In this document: positions 4,217 through 41,557 of the stretch, in pieces
How the letters are laid out: the number at the start of each line of letters is the position of its first letter
Numbering within the stretch: the first letter of the stretch is position 1
Assembly: GCA_900768425.1 (NCBI GenBank)
Contig: CAAGCR010000108.1
Span: 1 to 45,117, forward strand
Length of the DNA: 45,117 bases
Direction: 5' to 3'
Origin: Clostridia bacterium
Lineage (GTDB): Bacteria > Bacillota > Clostridia > Christensenellales > UBA1242
Notes under the pieces: generated by a model
Told to the model about the DNA's origin: nothing
Database searches by the model: none
What the model saw: only the letters and a program-made list of their open reading frames with translations
Translations under genes and position numbers: made by a program

Positions 4217-5806
4217 ATGGGCTTTATATCATTATATTTTTTAGCCTTTATTGTCACTTTGTTTTTGGTATACTTTTTAGTGCCAAAGAAAATTCGCTGG
4301 ATGATTCTTCTAATATTCAGCATAATTTTTTACTTGCTTTGCAGTTGGAAATCTATATTTTTTATACTTTTTACAACAATTTGCATATATTTTGCCAGTA
4401 ACAATATATCCAAGAATAAAACGCGAGAAAAAATTTATTTGGCAGAAAACACAAATCTTACCATAGATGAAAAAAAGGCATACAAGGCAAAAAATAAAAA
4501 ATTACGAAAAATACATATGGTGCTGGGTATTATTTCCATCGTTGCAGTGCTTGCAGTGATGAAATATTTAAACTTTACCATAGGAAATATAAATACCGTT
4601 TTAGGCTGGTTTAATAGCAGTTTTAAACTGAGTACAGTAAAGTGGTTTTTGCCACTTGGCATATCTTTTTATACCTTTCAAGCAATAGGCTATATTGCCG
4701 ATGTATATTGGGGAAAATATGAAGCGGAACAAAACTTTTTTAAGTTTTTGCTTTTTATGTCATTCTTTCCAAAAATTATGCAGGGTCCAATTATTCGTTA
4801 CAACGAAATTAAGGAAACATTGTTTGGCGAAAACGATTTCAATTATGAAGGTTTTACTAACGGCTTAAAACGTATGCTTTGGGGATATTTCAAAAAAATG
4901 GTAATAGCAGACTGTTTGATTGTGTTTACCAAATATGCTTTTGAAAATCCACAACTACTTAGCAGTATAGAAGCGGTGCTTGCAATAATTTGTTACTTTA
5001 TTTATGATTATTGCGATTTTTCAGGTTATATGGACATAGCCTGCGGTGTGTCGGAGTGTCTGGGGGTTAAACTGCCAGAAAACTTTAATCATCCATATTT
5101 CGCTTGCGGAATTGATGAGTACTGGCGTAGATGGCACATGACTCTTGGTGCGTGGTTTAAAGATTATATTTTTTATCCTTTGAGCGTGTCTAAATTTTCT
5201 TTAAACTTAGGTAAAAAATCTAAAAAGATTTTTAAAAAGAATGCTAACAAAGTTCCGGCAATTTTCGGTTTGATTCTTGTTTGGTTTTTAACCGGTTTGT
5301 GGCATGGGGCTAGTTGGAATTATGTTTTATGGGGCTTATATTTTGGCTTAATAATAATTATTAGCATAATTTTAGAGCCATTGTTTAATAGGTTCTATGA
5401 AAAGACAAAAATAGACAGAAATGCAAAATGGATAGTGGTGCTTAGACACTTGCGAACACTTGTCTTGCTTGCATTTGGTAAAATATTATTTGAAACAAAT
5501 TCATTGGGTGCAACCTTTGCATTTATTGGCAGTTTATTTAATTTTGGTAATGAATTCCCATTTATGCAAATTCATTCAAGCATAGGCGCTCCGTCTTTGA
5601 TTACGGCAATGATTTTAAGTTTGATTGTGCTTGTGGTTGACTTAATTCAAGAAAAAAATCCAGAAACAACATTTAGACAAAAACTAAAAAAATTGCCACT
5701 TGCATTAGAGTGGGCATTGCTATTATGTTTGGTCATATTTATTGTATGGTTTGGTTACTACGGACAAGGTTTGCCAAAATATGAGTTTGGTTATATGGGG
5801 TTCTAA
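4217..5806 (+). CDS. dltB: MBOAT-family membrane O-acyltransferase (DltB/AlgI-like)
   Basis: Polytopic membrane protein with WRRWHMTLGAWFKDYIFYPL and WHGASWNYVLWG motifs. At 529 aa it is longer than classical DltB. Confidence 0.8.
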   Translation: MGFISLYFLAFIVTLFLVYFLVPKKIRWMILLIFSIIFYLLCSWKSIFFILFTTICIYFASNNISKNKTREKIYLAENTNLTIDEKKAYKAKNKKLRKIHMVLGIISIVAVLAVMKYLNFTIGNINTVLGWFNSSFKLSTVKWFLPLGISFYTFQAIGYIADVYWGKYEAEQNFFKFLLFMSFFPKIMQGPIIRYNEIKETLFGENDFNYEGFTNGLKRMLWGYFKKMVIADCLIVFTKYAFENPQLLSSIEAVLAIICYFIYDYCDFSGYMDIACGVSECLGVKLPENFNHPYFACGIDEYWRRWHMTLGAWFKDYIFYPLSVSKFSLNLGKKSKKIFKKNANKVPAIFGLILVWFLTGLWHGASWNYVLWGLYFGLIIIISIILEPLFNRFYEKTKIDRNAKWIVVLRHLRTLVLLAFGKILFETNSLGATFAFIGSLFNFGNEFPFMQIHSSIGAPSLITAMILSLIVLVVDLIQEKNPETTFRQKLKKLPLALEWALLLCLVIFIVWFGYYGQGLPKYEFGYMGF

Positions 5807-5807
5807 T

Positions 5808-6863
5808 ATGAAAAAATTAATTAAATTTTTAAGTTTTTCTTTAATATGTGTGATGACTCTTGTTTGTTTAAAACAGTTTGTTTTTGTCAAGCGAAAAATT
5901 CCAACAGAGTATAGTAAGTTTTACGATGAAACACAAAATACGCTTGATTTAGTGTCAATAGGCAATTCTACGGTTGCATACGGAATAAATCCTTGCATTG
6001 CTTGGAAAAATTTTGGAGTTACAAGCTATAACATAAGCGGACAACCATCGCATCCGGAAATTATTAATCTTGCCATAAATGAAGTCGCAAGAACACAATC
6101 TCCAAAAGTTATTTACATAGACATCAACGGACTTACATTCCAAAAACAAGAAGAAGCTCCGGAGTTCATTAAAAGATATGTACAAGCAATGCCAGATGGC
6201 GAGGCTAAGCAAAATGTTATAGCACAATATAGTTTTTTAACTGATAATAACAGTGAAAAAGATTTGGAAATTTTTGAAAATCATAATGATTATAGAAATC
6301 CAGATTTTTGGGTATCTATGAACCAATTAGATTATTCAAAAGGGTATAGGGTTTCTTATAAAACAAAAAAAGCAAAAGATGTAAAAACTTTAGATAAAAC
6401 AACTATCTTACCGATTCAAGATGATGGGGTGTATTATCTAAATAAAATTTTAGATACCTGTGCAAAATATCCACAAATAAATTTCATATTTGGCAAAACT
6501 CCTCGATTTTTAAATGAAAACACCATCAACGAATCTTATATGTTGCGTTCACTTATTCCTACCATTCAAGATAAAGGCTATGAATATGTTGATTGGTCAG
6601 AATATTTAGAAGAAATGGAGTTTGATGCAAAAACCGATTCGTTTGATGAACATCATTTAAACATCTATGGTGCTACTAAATTTACAAAGTTTTATATCTC
6701 ATATCTAAACGATAAATATTCAATCTGTGGCACAGACCACGATGAAGAAACAGAAAACAACTTTAATGACTCTTATAAAAAATTTGAACAAGATAAAGAA
6801 AAACACGAGAAAAAGAAAGATAAAAAAGATTCAAAAAAGAAGTTGATGATTAGTGTAAAATAA
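5808..6863 (+). CDS. Membrane-anchored SGNH/DHHW-like acyl-transfer protein (functional analogue of DltD)
   Basis: It has an N-terminal TM anchor, a GNS motif (VSIGNSTV) and a C-terminal DEHHLN motif resembling the DxxH/DHHW catalytic motif. The ATG at 5808 overlaps the upstream stop (TAATATG). The C-terminal tail is lysine-rich. Confidence 0.6.
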   Translation: MKKLIKFLSFSLICVMTLVCLKQFVFVKRKIPTEYSKFYDETQNTLDLVSIGNSTVAYGINPCIAWKNFGVTSYNISGQPSHPEIINLAINEVARTQSPKVIYIDINGLTFQKQEEAPEFIKRYVQAMPDGEAKQNVIAQYSFLTDNNSEKDLEIFENHNDYRNPDFWVSMNQLDYSKGYRVSYKTKKAKDVKTLDKTTILPIQDDGVYYLNKILDTCAKYPQINFIFGKTPRFLNENTINESYMLRSLIPTIQDKGYEYVDWSEYLEEMEFDAKTDSFDEHHLNIYGATKFTKFYISYLNDKYSICGTDHDEETENNFNDSYKKFEQDKEKHEKKKDKKDSKKKLMISVK

Positions 6864-7249
6864 TAGTGAACAAAACGCAAAAGTATTTTGTAGTGAACGA
6901 GATAATCATAAGTGAACAAGCATTAAAATGCTTACAGAGAGCGGGCTACACCCGCGGTGAACGAACAATAAATTGTCCGCTGTGAAGTGTAAGCCGTTGG
7001 CTTGCGGTGATGGTCAATGTTGCTGTCGCAACAAATGATAAATGAAGATTGATGACTGATGAATTATTGTCAAATTAAAATATTTGAATTATAACCTATT
7101 AAAATATTTGAATTATAACCTAAGTTTTGCTCCCGAGCTCGCGTGGAGCAAAAACCAGAATAATACAATAAAGACCTTTTGGTGCGTCAATGGTTGTAAA
7201 ACCTTAAAAGGTTGGCAAAAACTTAGATGATAATACAATATTAAAAAAC
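6864..7249 (+). repeat. Mosaic intergenic repeat, copy A
   Basis: Module order: GTGAA-prefixed hairpin array 6864-7015, TGATGAATTA arm module 7018-7066, TTGTCA core 7067-7121, then hairpins. It shares 58 nt at about 84% identity with 32726-32783, and its arm module recurs at 25488-25600 (inverted) and 32641-32672. Confidence 0.75.
7074..7121 (+). repeat. Exact 24-bp tandem duplication (ATTAAAATATTTGAATTATAACCT x2)
   Basis: Read directly from the sequence. The first unit completes a TTGTCA-17-TATAAC promoter-like arrangement (7067-7095). Confidence 0.9.
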
Positions 7250-7290
7250 AAAGCAAAATTGCTATTTATGTGCAATTTTGCCTTATTTTT
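7250..7290. terminator. Bidirectional terminator-like hairpin
   Basis: AAAGCAAAATTGC / GCAATTTTGCCTT stem with T-runs on both strands. It shares a 20-nt identical 3' arm with the hairpin at 2353-2372. Confidence 0.55.
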
Positions 7291-7824
7291 TTATTTTTCA
7301 ATATTATTTTCTTTAATTTTACTACAATTTTTATAGAATTTATGATATTCCCCATCAAATTCATTATATGTAAAATTTAATTTTTTTAATAATTTTATCA
7401 TACTTGTATTTTGTGGTTTTACAGATAAAATAACTCTGTTAAAAGGTTGGCTTAATTTTAAACTTTTGTCTTTTGTTAAAAGTTGGTCTATAACATCTTT
7501 TGCAATGCCCACACCTCTAAATTTAGGATTTACGGTAATGCAATACAAATTTAAAGCATCAATATGTTCAATTCCAAACATAAGTGCAACAACCGGATGA
7601 TTATTTATATATCCCATTATATTTTTAAACTGAGAACCATTCATATATTTTAAACATTCATTAATGTCATTTGCGGTTTGCTCCCACGATTTTGTTTCCA
7701 TACAAAGATTAAATTTATCTTCTTTAGATAACCATTTGTCAAGAGTTAAATAATTTTCTTTTTCTATGTTTTTCCATTCTATTTGCATAGTTAAAATACT
7801 AGCATATTTTATTATATTTTTCAA
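7291..7824 (-). CDS. GNAT-family N-acetyltransferase
   Basis: Acetyl-CoA binding motif RGVGIAKDVIDQLL in a 177-aa protein. Confidence 0.75.
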   Translation of the reverse strand: MKNIIKYASILTMQIEWKNIEKENYLTLDKWLSKEDKFNLCMETKSWEQTANDINECLKYMNGSQFKNIMGYINNHPVVALMFGIEHIDALNLYCITVNPKFRGVGIAKDVIDQLLTKDKSLKLSQPFNRVILSVKPQNTSMIKLLKKLNFTYNEFDGEYHKFYKNCSKIKENNIEK

Positions 7825-15068: not shown

Positions 15069-15274
15069 TAAAAAAATAAATTAAAATTATTATAATTGAT
15101 TAATATTTAATAAAAAACAATAATTTTTTGTTTGTTTTTAATTCTTCTTGTATTTGAATTGTATTTATGTGTTATTTTTAAATATTTTAAATAATAAATA
15201 AAATATTAAAAATTTTTTGAAAAGTTTTTCCAAGAAAAAAACAAAAAACAAATATAAACCAAAAAGGATAAATT

Positions 15275-23806: not shown

Positions 23807-25252
23807 ATGAAACTAAAAAAGTTGTTAAAGGGTATTAAAGTATTAAATGCAAGGCAAGTAAAAAATGTTACTATTGATAATATTTCAAACAAGACCACCG
23901 ATATTTTAACTAATGGGTTATATGTATGTTTAAAGGGCGAGAATGTTGATGGGCATAATTTAAAGCAAGAAGCACAAAGATGTGGTGCAGTTGCTTTTGT
24001 CGTTGAAGAGTATGACTATGATTTTAGTGGACTTCAAATTTTAGTGGAGGACACAAGAGCGGTATTATCAAAATTGGCAAGAAATTTTTATGGTGAAATA
24101 CCAAAAGTTATTGGCATAACCGGAACAAACGGAAAAACGACCACAACAAACATTGTATACCATATTTTAAAAGAATCCGGCAAAAAGGTTGGACTTATTG
24201 GTACAGAAGGAATCTTTTATAACGACCAAAAAATAACTTTACATATGACAACACCTGACCCGTTAGAGCTTTATAAATATTTGGCAGATATGAAAAATAG
24301 CGGTTGTGAATATGCTGTGATGGAAGTTTCGGCTCATGCAATTTTTTATAAAAAAGTCAATGCCATAAACTTTTGCATTAAAGCATTGACCAACATTACC
24401 GAAGATCATTTAGATTTTTTTAAAACACTATCTAATTATCAAAAAACAAAAATGGGGTTTATGGTTAAAGATAAATGTATAAAAATTGTAAACACCGATG
24501 ATAAATACGGGGTAAGTCTTGCGTGCAAAAACAAAAATTGTTTTACATATTCAACAAACTTGCCCGCAGATGCAAGGGCAGAAAACATAACTTGTGGCGG
24601 TAAAAGGTTTAATTTAATTTTAAACGGCAAAAATCTATCAGTGGAAAGCAATTTACTTGGAGAGTATAATGTTCAAAATATGCTTTGCGGTGCATTAATT
24701 TGTAGTAGACTCGGCATAACAAATAGTCAAATTTTATCGGCAATTAAAACCTTTACTCCTGTTGATGGCAGATTAAATGAGTATAAAATTGGCAATAAAA
24801 ATATTGTAATAGATTTTGCTCATACTCCCGATGCTTTAAAAAATGTGCTAGTAACTTTAAGAAAAATTACACAAAACAAATTGTATTGTCTTTTCGGGTG
24901 CGGAGGTAACAGAGAAACCGAAAAAAGAAGCATAATGGGACAAATTGCAGGAGAGTTCAGCGATTTTGTCTATGTCACATCAGATAACCCACGTTTTGAA
25001 GAACCGGACTTTATTGCTAACCAAATTACATCGGGAATAAAATCTAAAAATTACAAAGTGATATTAGATAGAAAAACCGCCATATATGATGCTATAAACA
25101 CAATGCAAGATGGCGACATTTTAGCAATATGTGGTAAAGGTGCTGAAAACTATCTGGAAATCAAAGGTGTTAAATATCCATACAGTGACAAAGAAGTAGT
25201 TGAGCAGTGTGGTGGGAAAAAGGTGGGGAAAACGATGAATAGTGAAGAATGA
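23807..25252 (+). CDS. murE: UDP-N-acetylmuramoyl-L-alanyl-D-glutamate--2,6-diaminopimelate ligase
   Basis: GITGTNGKTTT P-loop and the DNPR motif (meso-DAP type), in a dcw-cluster context. The last codons and the TGA stop lie in the purine-word repeat. Confidence 0.9.
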   Translation: MKLKKLLKGIKVLNARQVKNVTIDNISNKTTDILTNGLYVCLKGENVDGHNLKQEAQRCGAVAFVVEEYDYDFSGLQILVEDTRAVLSKLARNFYGEIPKVIGITGTNGKTTTTNIVYHILKESGKKVGLIGTEGIFYNDQKITLHMTTPDPLELYKYLADMKNSGCEYAVMEVSAHAIFYKKVNAINFCIKALTNITEDHLDFFKTLSNYQKTKMGFMVKDKCIKIVNTDDKYGVSLACKNKNCFTYSTNLPADARAENITCGGKRFNLILNGKNLSVESNLLGEYNVQNMLCGALICSRLGITNSQILSAIKTFTPVDGRLNEYKIGNKNIVIDFAHTPDALKNVLVTLRKITQNKLYCLFGCGGNRETEKRSIMGQIAGEFSDFVYVTSDNPRFEEPDFIANQITSGIKSKNYKVILDRKTAIYDAINTMQDGDILAICGKGAENYLEIKGVKYPYSDKEVVEQCGGKKVGKTMNSEE

Positions 25253-25627
25253 AGATTGATGAATAGAGAATAATGAACAATGACTTATGACAGAAGAATT
25301 ATGACTGATGAATGAATAATGAAGACTGACAACTGATGAATTATTGTCAAATTATAAATATTAGAGTTATCACTAACTTTTGCATTATTCTTTTAGTTTG
25401 AGTCACTACAAGCCTTTACCCCCCCCCTTAGCAGGAGAGCAAAAACTTAGGTATTAAATTCACTATTATGAATAAAACATTAATTTTTCAGTCATCAGTA
25501 TTCATTTATCATTTGTTGCTTTAACAACACAACATTAATTCATCAGTTAGCATTCTTCATTTGTTGCATTAGCAACATAACATCAATCATCATTCATCAT
25601 TAAATAAAATCATTTTAAAGGGTTATT
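25253..25627 (+). repeat. Mosaic intergenic repeat, copy B
   Basis: Purine-word arm (TGATGAAT-type) 25233-25344, TTGTCA core 25345-25420, and two inverted arm modules 25488-25600. The core is about 75% identical to 32783-32868. The inverted arm modules match 7018-7066 at about 85%. Confidence 0.75.
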
Positions 25628-27976: not shown

Positions 27977-29113
27977 TTGCAAAAAAAGAGTTTAAAAAAC
28001 TTGTTTATTGTTTCAAAAAACAAAAAACCGGATATGCTTAGCGTTACTGTAGTTTGTTTGACTCTTTTTTTGTGCCTTGTTGGTTGTGTTATGGTATATA
28101 GTGCAAGCAGTTATTCAGCACTAAAAAACTATCATAATCAGTATCATTTTTTAATTAAACAAATTGTCGGTGTTATTGTCGGATTTGGTGGGCTTGCGTT
28201 TTTTTACTTTTTTGATAGTGACATATTAAAAAAATTAAAATGGCTGTTTTGGAGTGTGGCTGTAATTGGCCTTGTGCTTGTGTTTGTTCCGGGAATTGGT
28301 GCAAGCAATTATGGGGCAACTCGTTGGATAAGAATCGCAGGCGTGTCTTTTCAGCCGAGTGAACTTGCTAAGTTTGCCTTAGTGCTTTTTTGTGCTAGTT
28401 ATTTAAGCGATAATTTTAAAAAAGTCAAAAGTTTTAAAAGTTTGCTTTTGCCTATGCTAGTAGGCGGTGCATTGTGTTTGCTTGTAATTTTAGAGCCAAA
28501 TATGAGCGTTACTATGTGTTTAGGTTTAACACTTATTGCAATGCTTATCATAGGTGGTATATCAAAAAAACATTTTATGACATTATCCGTTCCGGCAATG
28601 GCTCTTGTTCCTGTGCTTATTATCATCGAGCCATATAGAATGAAAAGATTAATGGCATTTATTGACCCTTGGGCAAATCCGAAAGGTGAGGGCTTTCAAG
28701 TAATACAGTCTTTATATGCACTCGGCAATGGTGGACTCTTTGGGGTTGGACTTTTTAATAGTCGTCAAAAATATCTATTTTTGCCTTTTAGTGAATCAGA
28801 TTTTATATTTTCCATTATAGGTGAAGAATTAGGACTCTTTGGTGCGATAGTAATAATTCTTGCATATGTTGCTTTGGTTGTATGCTTAATAAAAATAGCA
28901 CTAAACGCAAAAAGTCGTTTTGGTGCTTTATTAACCGCGGGTATAGGTTGCCTAATAGCCATACAACTAGCAATAAACATAGCCGTTGTAACTTGCTCAA
29001 TTCCACCAACAGGAATACCACTGCCATTTATCTCAGCCGGCAGTTCCGCCCTAGTAATATTTTTAAGTATGATAGGTGTTACCCTAAATGTTAGAAAAAA
29101 GAGTTTAATGTAG
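27977..29113 (+). CDS. ftsW: SEDS-family peptidoglycan glycosyltransferase FtsW/SpoVE
   Basis: Ten-helix SEDS pattern (RWI..G..FQPSE, SESDFIF, GLPLPFISAGGSS-like) following murD. Confidence 0.85.
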   Translation: MQKKSLKNLFIVSKNKKPDMLSVTVVCLTLFLCLVGCVMVYSASSYSALKNYHNQYHFLIKQIVGVIVGFGGLAFFYFFDSDILKKLKWLFWSVAVIGLVLVFVPGIGASNYGATRWIRIAGVSFQPSELAKFALVLFCASYLSDNFKKVKSFKSLLLPMLVGGALCLLVILEPNMSVTMCLGLTLIAMLIIGGISKKHFMTLSVPAMALVPVLIIIEPYRMKRLMAFIDPWANPKGEGFQVIQSLYALGNGGLFGVGLFNSRQKYLFLPFSESDFIFSIIGEELGLFGAIVIILAYVALVVCLIKIALNAKSRFGALLTAGIGCLIAIQLAINIAVVTCSIPPTGIPLPFISAGSSALVIFLSMIGVTLNVRKKSLM

Positions 29114-29175
29114 TATTGGTGTTTTTGTTGATTTGAAAATGTTATTTGTAATATAATTAGCACAAGGAGTAAAAT

Positions 29176-29628
29176 ATGAAATTATCTGAAGCATTAATTA
29201 TAAGAAGTGATTTACAAAAACGCGTTGAACAAATTAGAATGCGTCTTGTTGCAAATGCAAAAGTTCAAGAGGGGGATAAAACTGCAGAAGACCCAAATGA
29301 GATTTTGGCAGAACTTGACCAAACTATAACTGATTTAACAGACATTATAAAAAGAATAAATTTAACAAATAGTGTAGTAACCGATGGTAAAAATACTATA
29401 ACTGAGTTGTTGGCAAAAAGAGATTGCTTGTCTTTAAAAATAAAAATTGAGCAAGAATTTTTAACCACTGCCAGAAACAAAATTGATAGATATTCCAATA
29501 AAGAAATTAAAGTATTTAGTGCAATAGATGTCAAAACAGAACAAGCAAAACTTGATAAATTGTCGAAAGAATTAAGAGAGTTAGATGTTAAAATTCAAGC
29601 ATTAAACTGGGCATCTGATTTAATTTAA
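29176..29628 (+). CDS. DIP1984-family (septicolysin-like) helical protein
   Basis: From memory, the N-terminus MKLSEALIIRSDLQKR...AKVQEGD..AEDPNE...INLTN and the C-terminal LNW motif match this 150-aa family. Confidence 0.65.
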   Translation: MKLSEALIIRSDLQKRVEQIRMRLVANAKVQEGDKTAEDPNEILAELDQTITDLTDIIKRINLTNSVVTDGKNTITELLAKRDCLSLKIKIEQEFLTTARNKIDRYSNKEIKVFSAIDVKTEQAKLDKLSKELRELDVKIQALNWASDLI

Positions 29629-29980
29629 TAAGTAAAATGAATTTTTTGATATTGTTTTAGACTTAAAAATATCTATTTTTTAAGTTGCAAACAAGCAAAA
29701 TGTTGAAAATTTATATATTTTTATTAAAAAGATTTTGTTTTTTACATATTAAAAGTGCATAGTGAGTAGCAATAATTGGGGTGTAACCCTTTACGTGGTT
29801 TTTGGGTAAAAAAATTCACAAAGAATTAGGGGTCCGCGGGAAAGGCTGACCGCAAAAATTAACATAAAATGCCAGCATATTAACATGTGCATTTTTATAT
29901 TTAACATTTACTACCAACATCAAATTATTGCGAGGGTTGAGGTTTAGGGGAAAATTTAAAATTGTGCCATAATAAATACT

Positions 29981-30022
29981 CTACTGAAAGATTTTATTGA
30001 CTTTTGAAAAATCTTTCAGTAG
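29981..30022. promoter_or_regulatory. Perfect 15-bp inverted repeat (CTACTGAAAGATTTT / AAAATCTTTCAGTAG) with TTGACT in the 12-nt loop
   Basis: Read directly from the sequence. A third half-site TGAAAGATTTTCTACT lies at 30085-30100. I read it as an operator-like element upstream of the phage-like cluster. Confidence 0.5.
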
Positions 30023-30135
30023 ATGTAGTATTTATTTAGAGGGTTGGCTTATATAAGTTTGTTTTTAATTAAAACATATTAAATTGAAAGATTTTCTACT
30101 TATGTCCGAACTATAATTAGAAAAAATTTAAAAAA

Positions 30136-30169
30136 CTCCGTCACAGGGTTATTGTGATGGGGTTTTTTG
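30136..30169 (+). terminator. Intrinsic terminator 45 nt upstream of the first phage-like gene
   Basis: CTCCGTCACA-GGGTTAT-TGTGATGGGG 10-bp stem followed by TTTTTT. Confidence 0.65.
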
Positions 30170-30213
30170 TTGGTATTATTTTGGTGTGATTTGCAAGGGG
30201 AGGACAAAATGGA

Positions 30214-30561
30214 ATGAACATTGCAGAAGAAATTGATGGCAAAATGATTAAAAAAGTATTAGATGCTTTAACCAAAAAGGCTACAGGTTATGAAACCAAA
30301 GAAGTTACAGAAGAGTATACAAATGATGGTGAAAAAGATGTTTTGACCAAAAAGAAAATCTGCAAATATTATGTCCCGGCAGACATATCAGCGGCTAAGT
30401 TACTTTTAGATGTCTGTGGCACGAGTCAACAAAAAAGTTATTACGGAATGAGTGATGAAGAATTGGACAATGAGGCCATTAGACTATTTAAAGAGTATCA
30501 AAGTTTGACTGACAAAAATATTTTTAATGAAGTAGAAGGAGAAGTAGGTGAAGATAGTTAA
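30214..30561 (+). CDS. Terminase small-subunit-like protein (C-terminal half only)
   Basis: ATGYETKEVTEEYTNDGEKDVLTKKKICKYYVPADISAAKLLLD resembles the conserved GYEYEE..EYD..G....K.....K..PPD..A..FWL core of Firmicute phage TerS proteins. The N-terminal HTH half is absent. Confidence 0.45.
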   Translation: MNIAEEIDGKMIKKVLDALTKKATGYETKEVTEEYTNDGEKDVLTKKKICKYYVPADISAAKLLLDVCGTSQQKSYYGMSDEELDNEAIRLFKEYQSLTDKNIFNEVEGEVGEDS

Positions 30562-30757
30562 AATAGCGTACAAAACAAAATGCGATTTCCCCGGTTGTAA
30601 AAATTTGGCAGAAAAAATAATTTGTGATGAAAACGATTCTGCAAAAAAGTTACAACTATGTGATGTATGTTTAAACAACATATATAATTGCGTTGCGAAA
30701 ACGGTTATCCCTAAGGGAATTGAAGCACCTTTTAAAAATCAAAGAAAATTAAGATAA
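30548..30757 (+). CDS. Small Cys-rich (C-x4-C ... C-x2-C) zinc-ribbon-like protein
   Basis: 69 aa, GTG start with an AGGAG SD. It overlaps the upstream gene by 14 nt. Confidence 0.45.
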   Translation: MKIVKIAYKTKCDFPGCKNLAEKIICDENDSAKKLQLCDVCLNNIYNCVAKTVIPKGIEAPFKNQRKLR

Positions 30758-30765
30758 GGAGATTT

Positions 30766-32640
30766 ATGAAAAAAAACGAAGAACAAGAACTTGTAAAAGA
30801 AGTGACCGATGATTTCAAAAAACGAAGTTATGAGCGTAAACCTTTTGATGCACAATGGCAATTAAATATGAACTTCTTGATGGGAAATCAATATTGTAGC
30901 ATAGGTTATAATAACGATGTTGAAGAATATGACAAACAATTTTTTTGGCAAGAAAGAGAAGTTTTTAACCATATAGCAAGCATAATAGAAACAAGACTTG
31001 CCAAGCTAAAAACAGTAAGACCAACAATGACAATAGTGCCGGCAAGCGGTGATGAAAGTGACATAAAAACAGCCAAATTAAGTAAAAAAATTGTCAATTC
31101 AATTTACAATAAAGAAGATATGTCAAAACTTATTTGTGAAGCTACTAAATGGAGTGAAATAACGGGTTCGGTTTTCTATAAAATTACATGGAACAATAAC
31201 AAAGGGCAAACATTTGCAGTAAACGACAAGGGTGAAAAGTTAAAAATGGGAGATGTGCAAATATCAATTTGTTCACCTTATGAAATCTATCCAGAAAGCA
31301 CTGCATCAACTAACTTGCAAGACTGCAAATCAATTATTCATGCAAAAGCATATCACATAGATGAAATAGAAAAACTATGGGGTAAAAAAGTTGCTGGTGG
31401 TGATGTAAATGTTTTCTCGCTAGATGCTAAAAATGATGGCATTGGTGGGCTTGGTTATAATGCTCGGGCTCCAAGAGTTGTAAATACCATAAAGAGCAAC
31501 TATGCGGTAGTAATTGAAAAATATGAAAAGCCAAATCTTAAATATCCGAACGGTAGACTAATTATTGTGGCAGGTGACCAGTTGCTATATGCGGGCGACC
31601 TACCATATGAAAACGGCAATGATGGCGAAAGAACTTTTCCGTTTGTTCGCCAAGTATGCTTAGAACAAAGCGGTTGTTTTTGGGGTGCAAGTGTTATTGA
31701 AAGAATAATACCTGTACAAAGAGCATACAATGCAGTAAAAAATAGGAAACACGAATATATCAACAGATTATCAATGGGGGTTTTGACCGTAGAAGATGGC
31801 TCGGTAGATATTGACAACTTAGAAGAAGAGGGCTTGTCACCAGGTAAAATTTTGGTGTATAGACAAGGTTCTTCTGCACCTAGTTATATGGCAAACACAA
31901 ATGTTCCGGCAGATTTTTCAATAGAAGAAGAACGTCTTTTAAATGAATTTAAAGTAATTAGTGGTGTGTCTGATATTATTAATTCAAATATTGCCAATAG
32001 CAATATTTCAGGTGTTGCTTTGCAACTTTTAATTGAACAAGATGAAGCAAGACTGTCAGTCACTAGTGACCAAATAAAAATGGCAATAAAAGATGTTGCA
32101 AAACACATTTTAAGACTATACAAACAGTTCGCAACAGTGCCACGTTTATTTAAAATTGTAGGCGATCATGGTGAATTAGAAGTCAACTATTTTAGTGCAT
32201 CTGATATCACCAGTGATGATATAACCTTTGAAACCGATACAGAACTAAACGAATCTTTGGCACAGCGTAGAACAATGGTTTTTGATTTGTTAAAAGCGGG
32301 ACTTTTGTACAACGAAGATGGAAAACTTACAAACAGAATGCGAATAAAAGCATTAGAACTTTTAGGTTTTGGTGTTTGGGAAAATTCACAAGATATTATG
32401 GAACTTCATCAAAAGAAAGCAGCGTGTGAAAATTCACATTTAATGAATGGTGATAAAATATCTGTCAGTGAAATTGATGACCATGATATTCACATAAATG
32501 AGCATATTGCTTTTATGTTAGGTGGAGATTACGAAAAGAATGCAACAAAAGAAATAGAAGCAAAATTTTTAGAACACATACGAGAACATAAAAAATACAA
32601 ACAAATAAATAATGAGATAGAAAATAGTCAAATACAATAA
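30766..32640 (+). CDS. Phage portal protein
   Basis: The call rests on its size (624 aa), the N-terminal W.LN.NF..GNQY motif, acidic internal segments and its position directly upstream of scaffold and capsid genes. Confidence 0.7.
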   Translation: MKKNEEQELVKEVTDDFKKRSYERKPFDAQWQLNMNFLMGNQYCSIGYNNDVEEYDKQFFWQEREVFNHIASIIETRLAKLKTVRPTMTIVPASGDESDIKTAKLSKKIVNSIYNKEDMSKLICEATKWSEITGSVFYKITWNNNKGQTFAVNDKGEKLKMGDVQISICSPYEIYPESTASTNLQDCKSIIHAKAYHIDEIEKLWGKKVAGGDVNVFSLDAKNDGIGGLGYNARAPRVVNTIKSNYAVVIEKYEKPNLKYPNGRLIIVAGDQLLYAGDLPYENGNDGERTFPFVRQVCLEQSGCFWGASVIERIIPVQRAYNAVKNRKHEYINRLSMGVLTVEDGSVDIDNLEEEGLSPGKILVYRQGSSAPSYMANTNVPADFSIEEERLLNEFKVISGVSDIINSNIANSNISGVALQLLIEQDEARLSVTSDQIKMAIKDVAKHILRLYKQFATVPRLFKIVGDHGELEVNYFSASDITSDDITFETDTELNESLAQRRTMVFDLLKAGLLYNEDGKLTNRMRIKALELLGFGVWENSQDIMELHQKKAACENSHLMNGDKISVSEIDDHDIHINEHIAFMLGGDYEKNATKEIEAKFLEHIREHKKYKQINNEIENSQIQ

Positions 32641-33175
32641 CAAATGAAGAATGAGAACTGATGAATTAATGATAATATTCCAGTGAACAAAACACGATGT
32701 GGCTTGCAGTGAACGGTCAAAGACCGCAGTGAATGAACAACAAGTTGTTCGCTGTGAAGTGCAAGCCTTAGGCTTGCGGTGATTGTCAAGTTTATATATT
32801 TTTATTTTGAGTTATTACAAACTTTTGTTATCACCAATTAACTTTGAGTCATCACAAGCCTTTGCTCCGAACAAAAGTGGCTGGCATTTGCAAAGCAAAT
32901 GACTGTGTTGTTTCTCTGCCTATTGAAAAAATAATCAATACTTATAATTAAAGAATTAAGGATAATATCAAAAAAAATAATTAATAAATATTTATTAAAA
33001 ATTATTTAATAATTAATTTTTAATTAAATTAATGTTTTAATTATTTATATATAAAATCTAATAAGAAATTATCAAAAAAAGATAAAAATAATCCTTAATT
33101 CATCATTTATCATTAATTTTCAATCATCATTAACTTTAACTCATTATTTATTAATAAACAAAAATAGGAGATATT
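32641..33175 (+). repeat. Mosaic intergenic repeat, copy C
   Basis: Arm module 32641-32672, GTGAA-hairpin array 32681-32783, TTGTCA core 32783-32868, an AT-rich segment, and an inverted arm module about 33090-33135. The homology to copies A and B is given in their entries. Confidence 0.75.
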
Positions 33176-33841
33176 ATGGAAGAAATAAAAAATTTAGGGG
33201 AACAACCTGAAAATCAAAACAAGGAAAATGTACAAAGTGAAATTGTTGAAGAAGTGAAAGAAGGTACGACTTGTCCTTGTGAGAATGAAGGCTCCCTAGG
33301 TAAATTTAAAGATACCACAAGTTTACTTTCTGCCTATAACAGTTTGCAGGCAGAGTTTACTAAAAAGTGTCAAAAATTAAGCGAGATTACAAAACAATTA
33401 AATGATAATCAGACCTTAAACAAAGAAGAGAGTATGCCGGTTTTTGCCGATGCTAATTGGCAAGAAAATGTTTCAAACTTCTTATCAAAAAATACCGAGG
33501 CACAAAAATATTCGGGAGAGATTGCAAACGAAATTCTTATGGATAAAAATTTGCAATCTTCTCCAAATGCCTTGGAACTTGCTTGGGCAAGAGTAATGCA
33601 AAAAAATTATGCCGAGCCTGAAAAATTATCTAATGATCAAAACTTCATCAATGAAAAAATTTTGAGCAGAGATGATGTAAAAAAACAAGTTTTAGAAGAA
33701 TATTTTAAAAATCTACAAAATGTAAAAACTCCACCAGTTATTACTTCTGATGGAAGTGTGGCAAGCATAGTAGAAAAAAAGCCTACTACAATGCATGAGG
33801 CAAAACTAGCGGTGGAGAAACTATTTAACTTAAAAGGATAA
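33176..33841 (+). CDS. Phage capsid scaffolding protein
   Basis: Acidic helical 221-aa protein with the GKFKDTTSLLSAYNSLQAEFTKK motif common in scaffold proteins. It lies between portal and capsid. Confidence 0.65.
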   Translation: MEEIKNLGEQPENQNKENVQSEIVEEVKEGTTCPCENEGSLGKFKDTTSLLSAYNSLQAEFTKKCQKLSEITKQLNDNQTLNKEESMPVFADANWQENVSNFLSKNTEAQKYSGEIANEILMDKNLQSSPNALELAWARVMQKNYAEPEKLSNDQNFINEKILSRDDVKKQVLEEYFKNLQNVKTPPVITSDGSVASIVEKKPTTMHEAKLAVEKLFNLKG

Positions 33842-33844
33842 TAA

Positions 33845-35071
33845 ATGGTAACTTTATCAAGCGCAGAAAGCGCATTAAAAACAGTATATTTGGGTGTCGT
33901 TGCAAATCAATTAAACATTAACGCAAACCCATTACTTGGAAAAATTAAACAAACAACAAAAGATGTCTGGGGTAAAGAAGTTAGAAAACTTGCTCCATAC
34001 GGAATTAACGGTGGTATTGGTGCAGGTGCAGAAGATGATGCACTTCCAAAAGCCGCTGGAAACAAATATGTTCAATTCGTGTCAGAACTTAAAAACTTAT
34101 ATGGCAAAATTGAACTTTCTGACAAGGCAATTCGTGCATCAGAAAACAATGCAGGTGCATTTGTCAATTTATTAAACGATGAAATGGAAGGCTTAGTAAA
34201 AGCATCTTCATTCAACTTTGGTCGTATGCTTTTTGGTGATGGTTCAGGTTTACTTGCAACTGTGCAATCTTTTGATTCATCAACAAAAGCTATTACTTGT
34301 GACACTGTAAAAAACTTGATAGAAGGAATGGTTATTGATACATATGCAACTTCCGGTAAAGTGGCTAATAGCAGTGGCGTAAGAATTAAATATGTTGACC
34401 GCGTAAACAAAAAAGTTTATATCGAAGACACAACCGTTACTTTCTCGGCTAACGATAAACTTTATGTTCAAAATTCAAAAGATTTTGAAATTACAGGGCT
34501 TGGAAAAATTTTCTCTAACTCAACCAAACTATATGGCTTAACAAGAGCAGATTATCCATGGCTTGCTCCTTACACTAAAACAAGTGCAGGGGAAATTAGC
34601 GATGGCTTAATTCAAAGTGCTATTGACTTTTTAGAGGAGGTTTCTGGCTCAGAAATTAACTATATTGCTTGCTCAAGTGCAGTAAGACGTGCTTATCAAG
34701 AATATTTAGGTGCATATAGAAGAAATATTGATATTGCAGTTTTAGATGGTGGTTATAAGGCTATATCATACAATGGTATTCCACTTGTTGCCGACAGATT
34801 TGTTGCTGATGATACAATGTATCTTTTGAATACTAATGACTTTACTTTACATCAACTTTGCGACTGGAAATGGTTAGAAGGTGAAGATGGTAGAGTAATT
34901 CGCCAAAATATGGGTTTCCCAACTTACAGTGCTACTCTTGTTAAATATGCTGACTTAATTTGCGATAAACCAAATGGTCAAGCAAAAATTAGCGGTATTT
35001 CTAGCACAGTAACTAACCCTTTTGCACCGGTTGTAAATAACAATATCACAAATACAACTGCCAATGGCTAA
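33845..35071 (+). CDS. Phage major capsid protein (HK97-fold type)
   Basis: 408 aa, immediately after the scaffold gene. Its composition and segments (YGKIELSDKAIRAS, FNFGRMLFGDGSG) resemble major capsid families. Confidence 0.7.
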   Translation: MVTLSSAESALKTVYLGVVANQLNINANPLLGKIKQTTKDVWGKEVRKLAPYGINGGIGAGAEDDALPKAAGNKYVQFVSELKNLYGKIELSDKAIRASENNAGAFVNLLNDEMEGLVKASSFNFGRMLFGDGSGLLATVQSFDSSTKAITCDTVKNLIEGMVIDTYATSGKVANSSGVRIKYVDRVNKKVYIEDTTVTFSANDKLYVQNSKDFEITGLGKIFSNSTKLYGLTRADYPWLAPYTKTSAGEISDGLIQSAIDFLEEVSGSEINYIACSSAVRRAYQEYLGAYRRNIDIAVLDGGYKAISYNGIPLVADRFVADDTMYLLNTNDFTLHQLCDWKWLEGEDGRVIRQNMGFPTYSATLVKYADLICDKPNGQAKISGISSTVTNPFAPVVNNNITNTTANG

Positions 35072-35108
35072 AAGGTTTTAAAATGCCTATAAGGTGAACT
35101 TTGAGAAC

Positions 35109-35206
35109 GAGCGGTAAAGTTTGTGACTTATAAAATAAGTCACAAAAGCCAAATTGATAATTCAATTTGGCTAGCACACTAAAATTTTAGTGTGCCTTTA
35201 CCGCTC
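35109..35206 (+). ncRNA. Perfect four-way-junction element (candidate structured RNA or DNA cruciform)
   Basis: An outer 11-bp stem GAGCGGTAAAG/CTTTACCGCTC encloses three perfect hairpins: 35123-35143 (9 bp), 35148-35171 (10 bp) and 35174-35195 (palindrome). It is preceded by GGTGAAC at 35093-35099. The strand is not determinable. Confidence 0.5.
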
Positions 35207-35259
35207 TAAGAAATCTTAAACAAACCTACATAATTTGCTTTAATTTTAAAAGGAGAAAA

Positions 35260-35595
35260 ATGGAAAAAGTAATTGTAAATAGTGACGCTTTAGGAATAAT
35301 AGACCGCTTAAAAATGTGGAATAAAAAATATGAAATTTATTATAATCTAAAATCTAAAAAATATATGTTATACCTTTTTGAAAACGAATTAAAACCAAGT
35401 GCATATTGCTTGACCTATCCATTTGATCAGATTGATGAGCGAATGATAGACTACACATTAAAAAGCGAAATACAAAACCGTAAAGCGTATTTAAAAGAAA
35501 TAGAGGAGTCCAATGCTCTCCTTTTAAGAAAAGAGCAAAAAAATATGTTAAATAAAATGGAGAATCATTTAAGTGACAGCAAAAGAAATAATTAA
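35260..35595 (+). CDS. Hypothetical phage-cluster protein (111 aa)
   Basis: Good AAGGAG SD. I recognise no motif. Confidence 0.5.
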   Translation: MEKVIVNSDALGIIDRLKMWNKKYEIYYNLKSKKYMLYLFENELKPSAYCLTYPFDQIDERMIDYTLKSEIQNRKAYLKEIEESNALLLRKEQKNMLNKMENHLSDSKRNN

Positions 35596-36142
35596 AAATG
35601 TTTGTACTTATCTCGGAAAAGAAGAACTATTAAATTCTTCTTTTTTTGAAAACGATGGACAAGAGCCAACAAAAGAGCAAACAAAACAAATAAACAAAAT
35701 GATAGATTGTTTAAACTACATAACAGAAGAATTAGCGACAGAATATTTGCCAATTATAAAGACAAAAGAAGTGACATTAAACTCTGGTGCGATTACATTA
35801 AAAGAAATAGATAGTAAATTACAAGAGATAATTTCAGTAAAAACTCTAAACGGAAAAACTCTAAGATACACCATAGCAAATGATAAAATGATATGCCTTG
35901 CAACAAGGGTGGTTATAAGTTATAAGGTATATCCCGAAACAATAACATTTACATCTTTGGCGGAAAACTTTGGTGGTAAAATCTCCGCAAGAGTAATTGC
36001 TTATGGTGTGGCAAGTGAATATTGCTTTTTAGAAATGTTATATGATGATGCAACGCTTTGGGAAAGCAGATATAAAAATGCTTTACTTGTAGCATCGCGT
36101 AAAAAAGGGGAAATACAACTTAAAAAAAGAGGGTGGTTTTAA
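35573..36142 (+). CDS. Putative head-tail adaptor/connector protein
   Basis: 189 aa, and its position after the capsid gene matches the podoviral adaptor (T7 gp11-like size). GTG start. The call rests on position and size only. Confidence 0.4.
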   Translation: MTAKEIIKNVCTYLGKEELLNSSFFENDGQEPTKEQTKQINKMIDCLNYITEELATEYLPIIKTKEVTLNSGAITLKEIDSKLQEIISVKTLNGKTLRYTIANDKMICLATRVVISYKVYPETITFTSLAENFGGKISARVIAYGVASEYCFLEMLYDDATLWESRYKNALLVASRKKGEIQLKKRGWF

Positions 36143-37644: not shown

Positions 37645-37723
37645 AAAATGATAATTATAAACAAAAAATTACTGAAAATGATTGCCACTAGGCAAAAGAA
37701 AATAATTGTAAAGGGGGATAGTG

Positions 37724-38629: not shown

Positions 38630-38811
38630 GATAGTTGGGGAAAATAAGAGTGACAAAATTTTTGAAATTTGGTAGTAAACGAGCATAACTCACCGGCAAT
38701 AAAAAACTTGTTTGCGGTGAAGTATAAATCGTATGCTTAAATTAGGGTTATGTTATGAACAAAACAAATAATAGCCGATATATAAATTCTATTTTTCCCT
38801 AAATAAAAACT

Positions 38812-39054
38812 ATGTGGAACGACATTTTTAATATTGCAATTTCAAATGGCATATTTGCTGCTTTGTTTGTTGCACTTTTAATCTATGAATTAAAAGATTC
38901 GCGAAAACGTGAAGCGAAATATCAAAACACAATAGACAATTTATCTAACAAACTGAATACTGTTGACGAAATAAAACAAGATGTAACAGAAATTAAAGAG
39001 TGTTTGAAGAAAACACCAAGGAGAAAAAATGAAAAAACTGATAAAGTCGTATAG
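38812..39054 (+). CDS. BhlA/UviB-family holin-like protein
   Basis: The N-terminal TM segment ISNGIFAALFVALLIY followed by KDSRKREAKY closely parallels Bacillus BhlA (QGPFAVLFCWLLFYVMKTSKERESKLY). Confidence 0.75.
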   Translation: MWNDIFNIAISNGIFAALFVALLIYELKDSRKREAKYQNTIDNLSNKLNTVDEIKQDVTEIKECLKKTPRRKNEKTDKVV

Positions 39055-39334
39055 ATTTTGGACTGCACTTGCCGGCTCGGCTGGTTTGTTGGTAGTAAGT
39101 ACCGCCAAAATATTTGGTGTAACCATATCAAGTACTGCCGTAGAAGATTTTATTATGGCAATATGTGGTGTTTTAGTAGTTTTAGGTATCGTCAAAAAAC
39201 CTAAAAGTAAAGAAAAAGATAATTCTGTAAAAGATGATAAATCTGACACCGAAGAAATGGGAAAAGATGTAAAGGATGAGTTTTTAGAAAAATTAAAAGA
39301 TGAAAATAAAGAACAAAATCTTAAATCCAAATAA
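39029..39334 (+). CDS. phi LC3-type phage holin
   Basis: Pattern ..FWTALAGSAGLLV.....FG........I.AICGVLVVLGIVKKP with a charged tail. AAGGAG SD. It overlaps the upstream holin gene by 26 nt. Confidence 0.65.
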   Translation: MKKLIKSYRFWTALAGSAGLLVVSTAKIFGVTISSTAVEDFIMAICGVLVVLGIVKKPKSKEKDNSVKDDKSDTEEMGKDVKDEFLEKLKDENKEQNLKSK

Positions 39335-41533: not shown

Positions 41534-41557
41534 AACTTTGTACAAGAAACTAAAATT

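Follow-up and report, generated by a model that had tools for sequence, protein, structure and literature searches.

The DNA analysed here (the window) is a stretch of 45,117 nt from an uncultured human-gut Clostridia bacterium, labelled 'Eubacteriales bacterium' at NCBI. Three of its intergenic regions carry related repeats: copy A, which begins 1 nt past the stop codon of a dlt-like gene (5781-6863) and lies between that stop codon and an intrinsic terminator; copy B, between murF and mraY, which begins within the last murF codons; and copy C, which begins at the stop codon of a P22-like portal gene. A sequence-only reading had noted that these spacers share modules and start at stop codons, and both points hold; all the modules are where it had placed them, and their similarity is well above chance by BLASTN. 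Within the window, copy A aligns to copy C over 88 nt (6930-7017 with 32702-32789, 81%, E=2e-19) and to copy B over 63 nt (7034-7095 with 25311-25373, 86%, E=2e-13). In inverted orientation, A matches B (7018-7098 with 25529-25448, 76%, E=6e-12) and B matches C (25533-25565 with 32639-32671, 94%). The 58-nt string that the earlier reading aligned to copy C, 6954-7011, is identical without gaps at 50/58 positions (86%).

In gene orientation, a full element consists of a 4-hairpin GTGAA-tagged array, one or more TGA/TAA-rich arms, a TTGTCAA leader, and a T unit of the form 5'-TTTTG-(Y strand CTCCCC)-loop-(R strand GGGGAG)-CTGG-(variable hairpin P2)-AC-(third strand TGAGGGG); an intact example lies at L028:20465-20528. 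The leader is conserved and runs into this hairpin/triplex unit in intact copies; the copies in the window have mostly lost the unit. Their features are as follows.

Copy A
6864-6910, plus strand: partial extra array with hairpin 1 and a decayed hairpin 2 (nhmmer 6864-6927 to array HMM positions 1-65, E=1.8e-4; sequence; DNA fold)
6911-7016, plus strand: complete 4-hairpin GTGAA-tagged array, ~108 nt (nhmmer E=6e-25; 81% to copy C; fold z=-3.6)
7017-7066, plus strand: arm, with a GTTGC-TGTC-GCAAC hairpin (7019-7032) and a TGA/TAA-rich tract ending CTGATGAATTA (arm HMM E=7e-15)
7067-7123, plus strand: type-1 leader, TTGTCAA...GAATTATAACCTAAG (same leader before intact units at L028:20436-20470 and L026:2530-2570)
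7124-7155, plus strand: T unit remnant, hairpin P1 only, GCTCC 7129-7133 / GGAGC 7145-7149 (sequence; comparison with intact units)
7156-7249, no strand assigned: right part with local hairpins (7202-7252 with 25426-25477, 71%, E=0.018)
Copy B
25229-25343, plus strand: tandem degenerate arms including the murF stop codon, 25250-25252 (window BLASTN; arm HMM; strain comparison)
25344-25418, plus strand: type-2 leader, TTGTCAA ... GAGTCACTACAAGCCTTT (leader HMM E=2e-17)
25419-25480, minus strand: fused P1 hairpin and minus-oriented type-1 head/leader (comparison with strain L130)
25481-25610, minus strand: two full inverted arms (25481-25529, 25535-25577) and a partial one (arm HMM E=1.5e-13, 3e-12)
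Copy C
32639-32672, plus strand: arm directly after the portal gene stop codon (arm HMM E=1.8e-5)
32682-32788, plus strand: 4-hairpin array (nhmmer E=7e-31)
32783-32855, plus strand: type-2 leader (leader HMM E=9e-18)
32856-32917, plus strand: decayed triplex unit (CM R1 15.8 bits, E=0.096)
33085-33140, minus strand: weak inverted arm remnants (33085-33114 inverted to 32650-32679, 30 nt, 83%, E=0.003)
Elsewhere in the window
38668-38738, plus strand: possible fourth array relic, strongly decayed (nhmmer E=8e-4 in the window)

The arm of copy A closes all three reading frames, and its leader contains an exact 24-nt tandem duplication at 7074-7122 (TRF 2.0 copies, 100%). Runs of T and of A border the P1 remnant, and neither P2 nor the third strand is left. 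Because of this loss, copy A is today a relic that forms a 3' flank of hairpins and not a promoter. Searching with CM R1 found no full T unit in copy A or copy B, and the 15.8-bit unit in copy C. The right part of copy A is possibly the relic of a convergent partner, judging from a single 12-mer, GCAAAAACTTAG at 7207-7218, which corresponds to the type-1 head in reverse complement and is also found in the minus-oriented head of copy B. In the RNA fold of copy A, 7119-7130 is paired with 7207-7220. We rejected the right half as a minus-oriented leader-2 remnant, the leader-2 HMM giving no match. One strain contig ends 55 nt into the copy A repeat.

Copy B can be compared with strain L130, which keeps both complete units at the murF-mraY site (CM 46.6 and 53.8 bits) with ~215 nt extra between them. 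In the window and in most strains there is a ~215-nt deletion whose ends lie within the two P1 hairpins; by this comparison, 25419-25480 is the deletion junction of two convergent elements. The inverted arms end upstream of the mraY start codon (25628), and one 48-nt arm is missing in strains L127, L130, and L136. The arms of copy B supply the murF stop codon, and indels in them shift the length of MurF among strains, from 477 to 493 aa.

In copy C, P1 has two mismatches, P2 is intact (CATTTGC-AAA-GCAAATG), and the tail reads ACTGTG vs ACTGAG; the arm remnants at its right end lie upstream of the next gene (33176). The same portal-gene site carries only the arm in strains L029 and L036. Filled and empty sites are found past the portal gene and at the priA stop codon (445 nt), where the insertion sits between the stop codon and an intrinsic terminator and its ends lack inverted repeats. 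The filled priA site can be read, ambiguously, as a TA or ATA duplication, the sole possible 2-3 bp duplication. Across strains, arm units of 13-48 nt are gained or lost, whole 300-450-nt composites are present or absent, and deletions occur between the palindromic hairpins of convergent partners. The possible fourth relic is present in all strains, and nhmmer also matches the orthologous site of five strains.

The array module is 108 nt long and holds four hairpins of 16-20 nt in direct orientation and fixed order, each with the 5' tag GTGAA(C/G/T). The 11 units listed earlier for copies A and C all have three bases before the tag and a hairpin after it, although two read GTGAT. The compensatory change noted in one stem turns out to be general: across 13 array copies, six pairs have changed on both sides, 91.7% of stem cells are paired vs 34-44% when partners are slid, and the covariation score is reached by 0/500 shuffles. 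Covariation of the array stems thus bears out the proposed selection on hairpin structure. The argument that wobble pairs mark the plus-strand RNA fails; stem G.T and A.C mismatches are equal in number (7 vs 7), which leaves no sign of plus-strand wobble.

The arm is TGA/TAA-rich, and in forward orientation all three reading frames are closed in 36/36 distinct arms. Its proposed distribution stands for 7017-7066 in copy A, for two inverted arms in copy B, and for the left end of copy C; at the right end of copy C there is only a weak remnant. A kink-turn or C/D box reading of UGAUGA...CUGA in the arms was discarded, having yielded only weak snoRNA matches (E>1), as was a Fur-box-like reading of TGATAAT at the module borders, whose half-site match is too poor. 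Likeness to the ERIC central palindrome is superficial.

These modules also occur outside the window, in about nine loci of the 62.5-kb source contig, in other strains, and in one related species. The contig holds 15 arms, three arrays plus one possible relic, and six strong T units plus the decayed one of copy C. At least nine more strains (L027, L029-L036) have modules, and so does Clostridia bacterium HGM11346, a related species in which simple arm-leader-T units fill two co-directional spacers. In a relative whose ortholog of the protein encoded downstream of the dlt-like operon shows 50% identity, 21 kb of sequence contained none of them. A scan of genome contigs with the arm pattern, one that did not recover the source species, gave four matches, three by chance and one real (HGM11346), and scans of viral contigs with arm and hairpin patterns gave none, or chance 17-mer matches. 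No protein family recurs among the clustered genes flanking ~85 metagenomic units. Elements lie directly past stop codons or form convergent pairs; at 6/8 source-contig loci, the element is oriented like the upstream gene and starts 0-40 nt past its stop codon.

The suggestion of a modular repeat in the style of REP, BIME, or BOX is well founded to the extent that this is a multi-copy, intergenic family polymorphic for insertions and deletions. On balance, we think that 6864-7249 is probably a decayed member of a family of structured intergenic DNA repeats that are non-autonomous and restricted to one lineage.

The earlier statement that the family is unrecognised stands in part. Rfam 15, at gathering and permissive thresholds, returned only tRNA and nothing relevant at E<=10 for the three regions, and nothing relevant at E<=1 (or <=0.5) in 118 kb of related loci; a literature search with strings of the repeat sequence returned eukaryotic primers only. 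The core, in contrast, is of a described kind, a variant of the class II purine-motif intrastrand-triplex repeats known as BoxC/PIT/TM_ECO. The order Y-loop-R-connector-RH can be read in 136/141 CM hits (the parsable intact units), in which the P1 stem is paired throughout and the blocks hold 5-9 triplets. The second connector is 11-40 nt long (median 19.5) and holds hairpin P2, which covaries freely (75 seed sequences, 141 CM hits). The third strand, R', mirrors the purine strand R, and changes in the two strands track each other according to the purine-motif triplet code, which makes the T unit a class II intrastrand-triplex element. As predicted from this pattern, the T unit in a single strand can fold into a hairpin with the third strand in its major groove.

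Comparing tails with the code G*G-C, A*A-T, T*A-T, T*C-G in a fixed antiparallel register, we found a fit at 196/240 positions over 34 P1 types; permuted tails gave 161.6 +/- 5.0 fits, and the observed 196 was reached by 0/5000, with the independent evidence confined to the inner triplets and the partners recovered by the CM, given that the seed pattern fixes 23 bases. Properly parsed P1 types fit the code at 7/7 to 9/9 positions. The outermost pair occurs in three states: G-C with T, C-G with G, and T-A with A. Watson-Crick pairing of the tail with the 5' strand of P1 fails in asymmetric types such as CTCTCC/GAGAGG. Units from the source lineage fit the code imperfectly; the type-1 tail is GAGAGG vs GGGGAG, and units with a CCCCC P1 keep GAGGGG. 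Type-2 tails can alternatively pair with a downstream CCCTGCC to form hairpin P3, which has compensatory changes in HGM11346.

T units also occur in SR1/Gracilibacteria-type contigs, from bacteria in which TGA is a sense codon, in Deinococcus, with a doublet on a plasmid of D. actinosclerus, and in high-GC metagenome lineages. In these other lineages they alternate in orientation, like BIMEs. We tentatively propose, a little short of even confidence, that the T unit represents a class of intrastrand-triplex repeat that spans phyla, has a hairpin in its connector, and had gone unrecognised, and that the covariation reflects selection on a DNA triplex. If so, the three-way covariation would be the first comparative-genomic evidence of natural selection on a bacterial purine-motif DNA triplex, as opposed to a potential present only in the sequence, and the gut Clostridia lineage would have built the T unit into a larger mosaic with a three-frame translational stop.

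The closest known system is BoxC/PIT/TM_ECO of E. coli and other Proteobacteria (Hoyne et al. 2000, as cited; Holder et al. 2015, PMC4666352), which shares with the T unit the class II order pyrimidine-purine-reverse-Hoogsteen purine. Both have G/C-rich blocks, are intergenic and multi-copy, often as inverted pairs of two subtypes, lack an associated gene class, and occupy loci prone to small deletions that leave hairpins. Their sequences are unrelated (TM_ECO consensus CCCTCNCCC N3-6 GGGNGAGGG N3 GGGNGAGGG vs CTCCCC/GGGGAG/GAGGGG), and blastn of the T unit against 5,426 E. coli genomes gave no match. The second connector of TM_ECO is 3 nt, whereas that of the T unit is far longer and carries a covarying hairpin; published triplex searches cap loops at 6 or 10 nt, so these short-loop searches miss the T unit and with it the entire class. 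Because the blocks of the T unit, unlike those of TM_ECO, lack mirror symmetry, covariation reveals that its third strand runs antiparallel. Moreover, the T unit of the source lineage sits in a larger mosaic of arms, leader, and hairpin array, unlike BoxC/PIT/TM_ECO.

The likeness to REP/BIME/REPIN lies in the short extragenic hairpins, GC-rich and headed by a conserved 5' tag, in mosaics with linker motifs at the 3' ends of transcription units, and in the alternating orientation of T units of other lineages. However, the REP tag is GTAG or CGTC on palindromes of 20-40 nt, where the array has GTGAA and shorter hairpins; the basic REP unit is two inverted REPs, whereas the four array hairpins are direct, ordered, and mutually different; and the hosts are Enterobacteria and Pseudomonads rather than a low-GC Clostridia bacterium. 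Pneumococcal BOX elements (boxA-boxB(n)-boxC) are likewise modular, with a variable number of internal modules and strong predicted structure in a low-GC Gram-positive host; going by their description, their modules, order, and sequences look different. They are not known to contain a triplex-type unit or a three-frame stop arm. By description alone, the family also resembles the SNRs of Deinococcus radiodurans, intergenic repeats of 'unusual, mosaic structure' found in that species and not in a close relative (PMC1978522).

Most likely, the elements act as structured, non-autonomous repeats at the DNA level, a source of indels and of stop codons, and not as a dedicated RNA gene. Their structures would form transiently in single-stranded DNA at replication or transcription, and once folded could stall or mislead polymerases and give rise to indels. 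Palindromic TM_ECO pairs undergo the same kind of deletion (Holder et al, PMC4666352). A stable TM_ECO triplex was not detected by in vivo footprinting. Spread to new sites would need a trans-acting function; an ORF motif screen of the ~0.9 Mb of loci examined found no HUH/Y1 transposase (RAYT) candidates. Any effects on the upstream mRNA through 3' hairpins would be a by-product.

The strongest alternative, though an unlikely one, is that the elements act as RNA, as 3'-UTR extensions of the upstream gene in which the GC-rich arrays and a T unit folded as three hairpins, P1-P2-P3, would shield the mRNA from 3' exonucleases, serve as processing sites, or yield 3'-derived sRNAs. Most elements are oriented like the gene upstream and, as with copy A and the priA insertion, come before its terminator, which makes their transcription probable. 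E. coli REPs are known to stabilise mRNA (background in PMC6006769), and the covarying stems and the compensatory change in P3 of type-2 units in HGM11346 would suit an RNA as well. But the equal mismatch counts leave the gene strand with no G.U excess, and both strands fold equally strongly (z -3.6 and -4.0). At L028:19555-19740 and L030:17808-17918, elements run opposite to the genes on both sides, and the alternating units of other lineages likewise argue against a role in the upstream transcript. Watson-Crick pairing does not account for the mirror covariation of the tail, and purine-motif triplexes are reported to be unable to form in RNA (PMC4666352). Tetraloops typical of RNA are rare (18 C(GNA)G triloops, 5 GNRA, and 0 UNCG among 82 distinct P2 loops), and the lack of an Rfam match points the same way.

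It is more improbable still that these are classical MITEs whose arms are terminal inverted repeats for a DDE transposase, with the arrays and cores as passengers. The inverted arm pairs in copy B and at L028:16935-17013 invite this interpretation, but strain L130 assigns those of copy B to two separate convergent elements, both equipped with a leader and a T unit, and we rejected the arms at both ends as terminal inverted repeats of a single element on this ground. The simple units of HGM11346 have an arm on a single side, and arm number varies as tandem units. There is an IS3-family transposase gene on the same contig, and the priA site admits its short duplication, yet the ends of that insertion are not inverted repeats.

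Least credible, and very unlikely, is that the TTGTCAA core is an outward, Correia-like promoter of sigma-70 type for a small RNA or the downstream gene: the TTGTCA-17-TATAAC that had suggested -35 and -10 boxes does exist in copy A (7067-7095), some other copies have like spacing, and HGM11346 elements occupy the entire spacer before the next gene, but the second hexamer lacks the conserved final T at position 6 (TATAAC, TTATCA, ATTAAC), the first is variable (TTGTTA, TTGTCT, TAGTTA, TGGTTA), the spacing in copy C is 23 nt, a promoter scan made no call at 7067-7095 and its hits in the three regions were not above shuffled controls, and PIT elements have no promoter activity in E. coli (PMC4666352).

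For BoxC/PIT, whose fold has been seen in vitro, folding in vivo and the reason for retention are an open question; covariation among all three strands of a triplex unit, seen across distant phyla, makes that question addressable from sequence data, and T units offer concrete asymmetric sequences for experiment. The family of structured DNA repeats also accounts for hypervariable spacers between strains, for variable C-termini of essential genes such as MurF, and for assembly breaks in metagenome-assembled genomes, and might serve as a strain-typing marker. As for the tag itself, six of the 11 occurrences of GTGAAC in the 45-kb window lie inside the three regions, which together span 1.3 kb.

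Three intergenic spacers of the window, copies A (6864-7249), B (25229-25627) and C (32636-33175), share modules with similarity beyond chance, as the sequence-only reading had proposed. Positions 6930-7017 match 32702-32789 at 81% over 88 nt (E=2e-19) and 7034-7095 match 25311-25373 at 86% (E=2e-13); two further matches are inverted, 7018-7098 to 25529-25448 (76%) and 25533-25565 to 32639-32671 (94%). The 58-mer previously aligned between copies A and C is indeed identical at 50/58 positions. The placement of the copies at or near stop codons also stands: copy A begins 1 nt past the stop of the gene for a 360-aa protein, which closes a dlt-like operon after the AMP-binding, PP-binding and MBOAT genes; copy B has its left end in the last codons of murF and its right end at mraY; and copy C starts at the stop codon that ends a P22-like portal gene. 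Just past the right border of the copy A region, a bidirectional intrinsic-terminator-like hairpin at 7250-7293 (AAGCAAAATTGC...GCAATTTTGCCTT plus a T-run) separates it from a convergent GNAT gene; similar sequences lie at 2317-2383 and 15157-15190.

The array module spans ~108 nt and contains four differing hairpins in fixed order, each preceded by GTGAA(C/G/T). Across 13 copies, 91.7% of stem cells are paired versus 34-44% when the partners are slid, and compensatory changes affect both sides in six pairs; the observed covariation was reached by no shuffle. This covariation bears out the earlier suggestion of selection on hairpin structure. The accompanying argument that wobble pairs point to the plus strand does not hold; G.T and A.C mismatches are equal in number (7 versus 7), so the stems cannot tell the functional strand, and the arrays fold equally strongly on either strand (z -3.6 and -4.0). 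The arm (~35-50 nt) is a TGA/TAA-rich tract that ends in CTGATGAATTA and is in some cases preceded by a GTTGC-N4-GCAAC hairpin. Arms provide stop codons: all 36 distinct arms, each at least 35 nt long, close all three frames on their own strand, with 7.1 stop triplets per arm versus 1.9 on the reverse strand. At one locus (L028:16935-17013), two abutting inverted arms form a near-perfect 79-nt palindrome, the source of a spurious match to a plant microRNA precursor in Rfam (MIR1523, E=0.003). The leader starts with TTGTCAA and is either short (type 1) or long with a duplicated GAGTYATCACAAACTTTTG (type 2). Its start had been read as part of a promoter, a reading that finds no support: the second hexamer has no conserved final T, the spacing is inconstant, and promoter-like matches are not above shuffled controls.

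In intact copies the leader runs into a core, the T unit, TTTTG-CTCCCC-loop-GGGGAG-CTGG-[hairpin P2]-ACTGAG(G/A)GGTT; its loss from the window copies hid it from the sequence-only reading. A single metagenome scan with a gapped T-unit pattern yielded 89 loci (G+C 28 to 68%); 75 of these served to build a covariance model (CM), which detected 141 units in 0.5 Mb. Many of these are weaker partners adjoining the seeds, convergent as well as divergent, a pairing of neighbours like that of BIMEs; the genes flanking T units showed no recurrent protein family. P2 changes freely in both its sequence and its length, with pairing kept. The tail after P2 is the mirror image of the purine (R) strand of the first hairpin, P1, and not its reverse complement, and the two change together (Y, the pyrimidine strand of P1):

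P1 Y strand CTCCCC, P1 R strand GGGGAG, tail GAGGGG
P1 Y strand CTCTCC, P1 R strand GGAGAG, tail GAGAGG
P1 Y strand CCCCCTC, P1 R strand GAGGGGG, tail GGGGGAG
P1 Y strand CTCCTT, P1 R strand AAGGAG, tail GAGGATT

The outermost P1 pair occurs in three states: G-C with tail T, C-G with G, and T-A with A. When 34 P1 types are read against their tails in one constant antiparallel register, 196/240 positions satisfy the purine-motif code (G*G-C, A*A-T, T*A-T, T*C-G). Because the seed pattern fixes 23 bases, the independent evidence lies in the inner triplets and in the partner units recovered by the CM; the source lineage's own T units fit imperfectly. Permuting the tails gave 161.6 +/- 5.0 fits, and 196 was reached in 0/5000 permutations. 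Watson-Crick pairing as an alternative explanation of the tail fails in the asymmetric P1 types. By its mirror covariation, the T unit looks like an intrastrand triplex, and its order of Y, R, and then a predicted reverse-Hoogsteen strand matches the class II purine-motif definition.

Class II purine-motif intrastrand triplexes include E. coli BoxC, also known as the PIT element or TM_ECO (Holder et al. 2015, PMC4666352). Such triplexes are formed by isolated single-stranded DNA and were not detected in vivo, and RNA cannot form them (PMC4666352). TM_ECO is intergenic, frequently in inverted pairs of two subtypes, at loci with unusual variability; its palindromic pairs are prone to small deletions after which a hairpin remains (PMC4666352). 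The T unit differs in sequence, which is unrelated and has no match in E. coli genomes, in its asymmetric blocks, which reveal the antiparallel register, and in its second connector, which is 11-40 nt long and contains P2. Because earlier searches for intrastrand triplexes allowed loops of up to 6 or 10 nt only, they could not have found it. The family as a whole had not been recognised by the sequence-only reading, and our Rfam search likewise gave no match. It is a new mosaic family whose general style is known, REP/BIME/BOX-like, a likeness already drawn from the sequence; its core is, by predicted structure, a new variant of the BoxC/PIT-type intrastrand-triplex repeat. What gives the finding broader interest is the T unit's three-way covariation, which extends across phyla.

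Among 82 distinct P2 hairpin loops, the C(GNA)G triloop, which is stable in DNA, occurs 18 times, and the RNA-typical GNRA and UNCG loops occur 5 and 0 times. This preference lends modest support to a structure at the DNA level. The live rival is an RNA role in which the elements would act as 3'-UTR stabilisers, and it gains from the probable inclusion of most elements in the upstream gene's transcript. It gains too from type-2 tails, GAGGGG followed by TTTCCCTGCC, which can form a small Watson-Crick hairpin, P3 (L021:5040-5062; type-2 units, e.g. L028:16915-16936). In Clostridia bacterium HGM11346, a GTDB representative, the tail GAAGGG and its partner CCCTTC represent a double compensatory change in P3. 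In this lineage, then, a Watson-Crick hairpin may rival or have supplanted the third-strand contact.

The window comes from a 78-kb human-gut metagenome scaffold (ENA ERZ28569123, scaffold_204), and proteins identical to its own are labelled 'Eubacteriales bacterium' at NCBI. The source genome is known here from ~80 kb, and merging the flanks with the window gave 62.5 kb for survey. We counted about nine module-bearing loci (~one per 7 kb), with 15 arms, three 4-hairpin arrays and one possible relic, and six strong T units plus the decayed one of copy C; extrapolation would give a few hundred module-bearing loci per genome. The modules are also present in nine other strains with the same EF-Ts (L027, L029-L036), in contigs of one more gut co-assembly (SAMEA104315433), and, as two simple arm-leader-core units, in HGM11346. 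In 21 kb of a relative, no module was found; at the locus of copy A, where its orthologous protein is only 50% identical, an ordinary terminator takes the repeat's place. The viral contigs searched gave no match.

The commonest metagenomic T-unit lineage consists of rumen and gut contigs (28-33% G+C) in which long ORFs appear only with TGA as sense; translated with TGA=Gly, a 997-codon ORF matches, at 60-90% identity, proteins that carry the labels SR1, Absconditabacterales, Gracilibacteria or Peribacteria. A Deinococcus actinosclerus plasmid carries one T-unit doublet between hpaD and the next gene. Together with gut Clostridia, these occurrences show that the T unit spans at least Bacillota, Patescibacteria and Deinococcota. 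Metagenome loci rich in T units (L093, L113, L092, L065, L054, L060, L101, L120, L072 and others) have essentially zero ORFs >250 codons under the standard code and full coding density with TGA as sense, and their spacers hold further GC-rich palindromic repeats, e.g. GTCATTGCGAGCG...AGCGAAGCAATCC.

Strains differ by deletions, tandem arm indels and the presence or absence of elements. Between murF and mraY, strain L130 has two complete convergent elements, each with arms, leader and T unit (46.6 and 53.8 bits). In the window and most other strains, ~215 nt between these elements are missing, with the junction within both P1 hairpins, which read alike in either orientation; copy B is therefore a deletion product, and its inverted arms come from two former elements rather than one MITE. 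Arm units of 13-48 nt are gained or lost on both sides, and because the murF stop codon sits in this variable tract, MurF (window 23807-25252; strains L127-L136) is 477, 481, 488 or 493 aa long. On the 3' side of priA, some strains have TAA directly before the terminator and others have TAG, a 445-nt composite (array, leader, T unit, inverted arm) and the same terminator; its array and leader are 87% identical to another locus of the same strain. On the 3' side of the portal gene, two strains carry a single arm, and the window carries an arm, array, leader and decayed T unit. Copy A is a relic. It has one full array besides a partial one, a single arm, and a type-1 leader in which 24 nt are duplicated exactly in tandem; of its T unit, just the P1 hairpin survives. 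The 12-mer GCAAAAACTTAG at 7207-7218 suggests a lost convergent partner; the 427-nt spacer is the same in one other strain. A Logan contig (L138, SRR25936322) ends inside the repeat, 55 nt past the gene that precedes copy A, as would be expected if the family disrupts short-read assembly.

We propose that the triplex-like structures would arise transiently in single-stranded DNA and provoke slippage or deletion, as proposed for TM_ECO. Spread to new sites would require some trans-acting function; no HUH/Y1 candidate was seen among the fetched loci, and a possible target duplication appeared in one case only (an ambiguous TA/ATA). Gene-oriented placement just past stop codons may reflect tolerated insertions, with immediate termination presumably guaranteed by the forward arm.

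The window has other features. A phage-derived block at ~29100-41600, from ftsW to rpsB, encodes a P22-like portal, DUF7934, BhlA, phage holins and a Peptidase_M26-like protein. It occupies the same position in ten of ten strains, no integrase was seen in it, and instead of an active prophage it may be a phage-like cluster that has been domesticated. At 44120-44251, a 41-nt tandem repeat (TGTTTTCTTTAGGAACGCAAGAACAACGCGAACAAAGTGAG, 3.2 copies, 91% matches), unrelated to the family, sits in a strain-variable tsf-priA insertion with genes for HTH repressor-like and DUF285/LRR proteins; some strains lack this insertion entirely. Positions 1-17, ACGACGCTCTTCCGATCT, are the 3' part of an Illumina adapter, and since the ENA scaffold is genomic there, the contig end is an adapter artefact. 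At the left end, the minus strand (~10-1235; L026:8552-9777) carries an IS3-family transposase, made up of an rve-domain ORF and a small ORF upstream of it.
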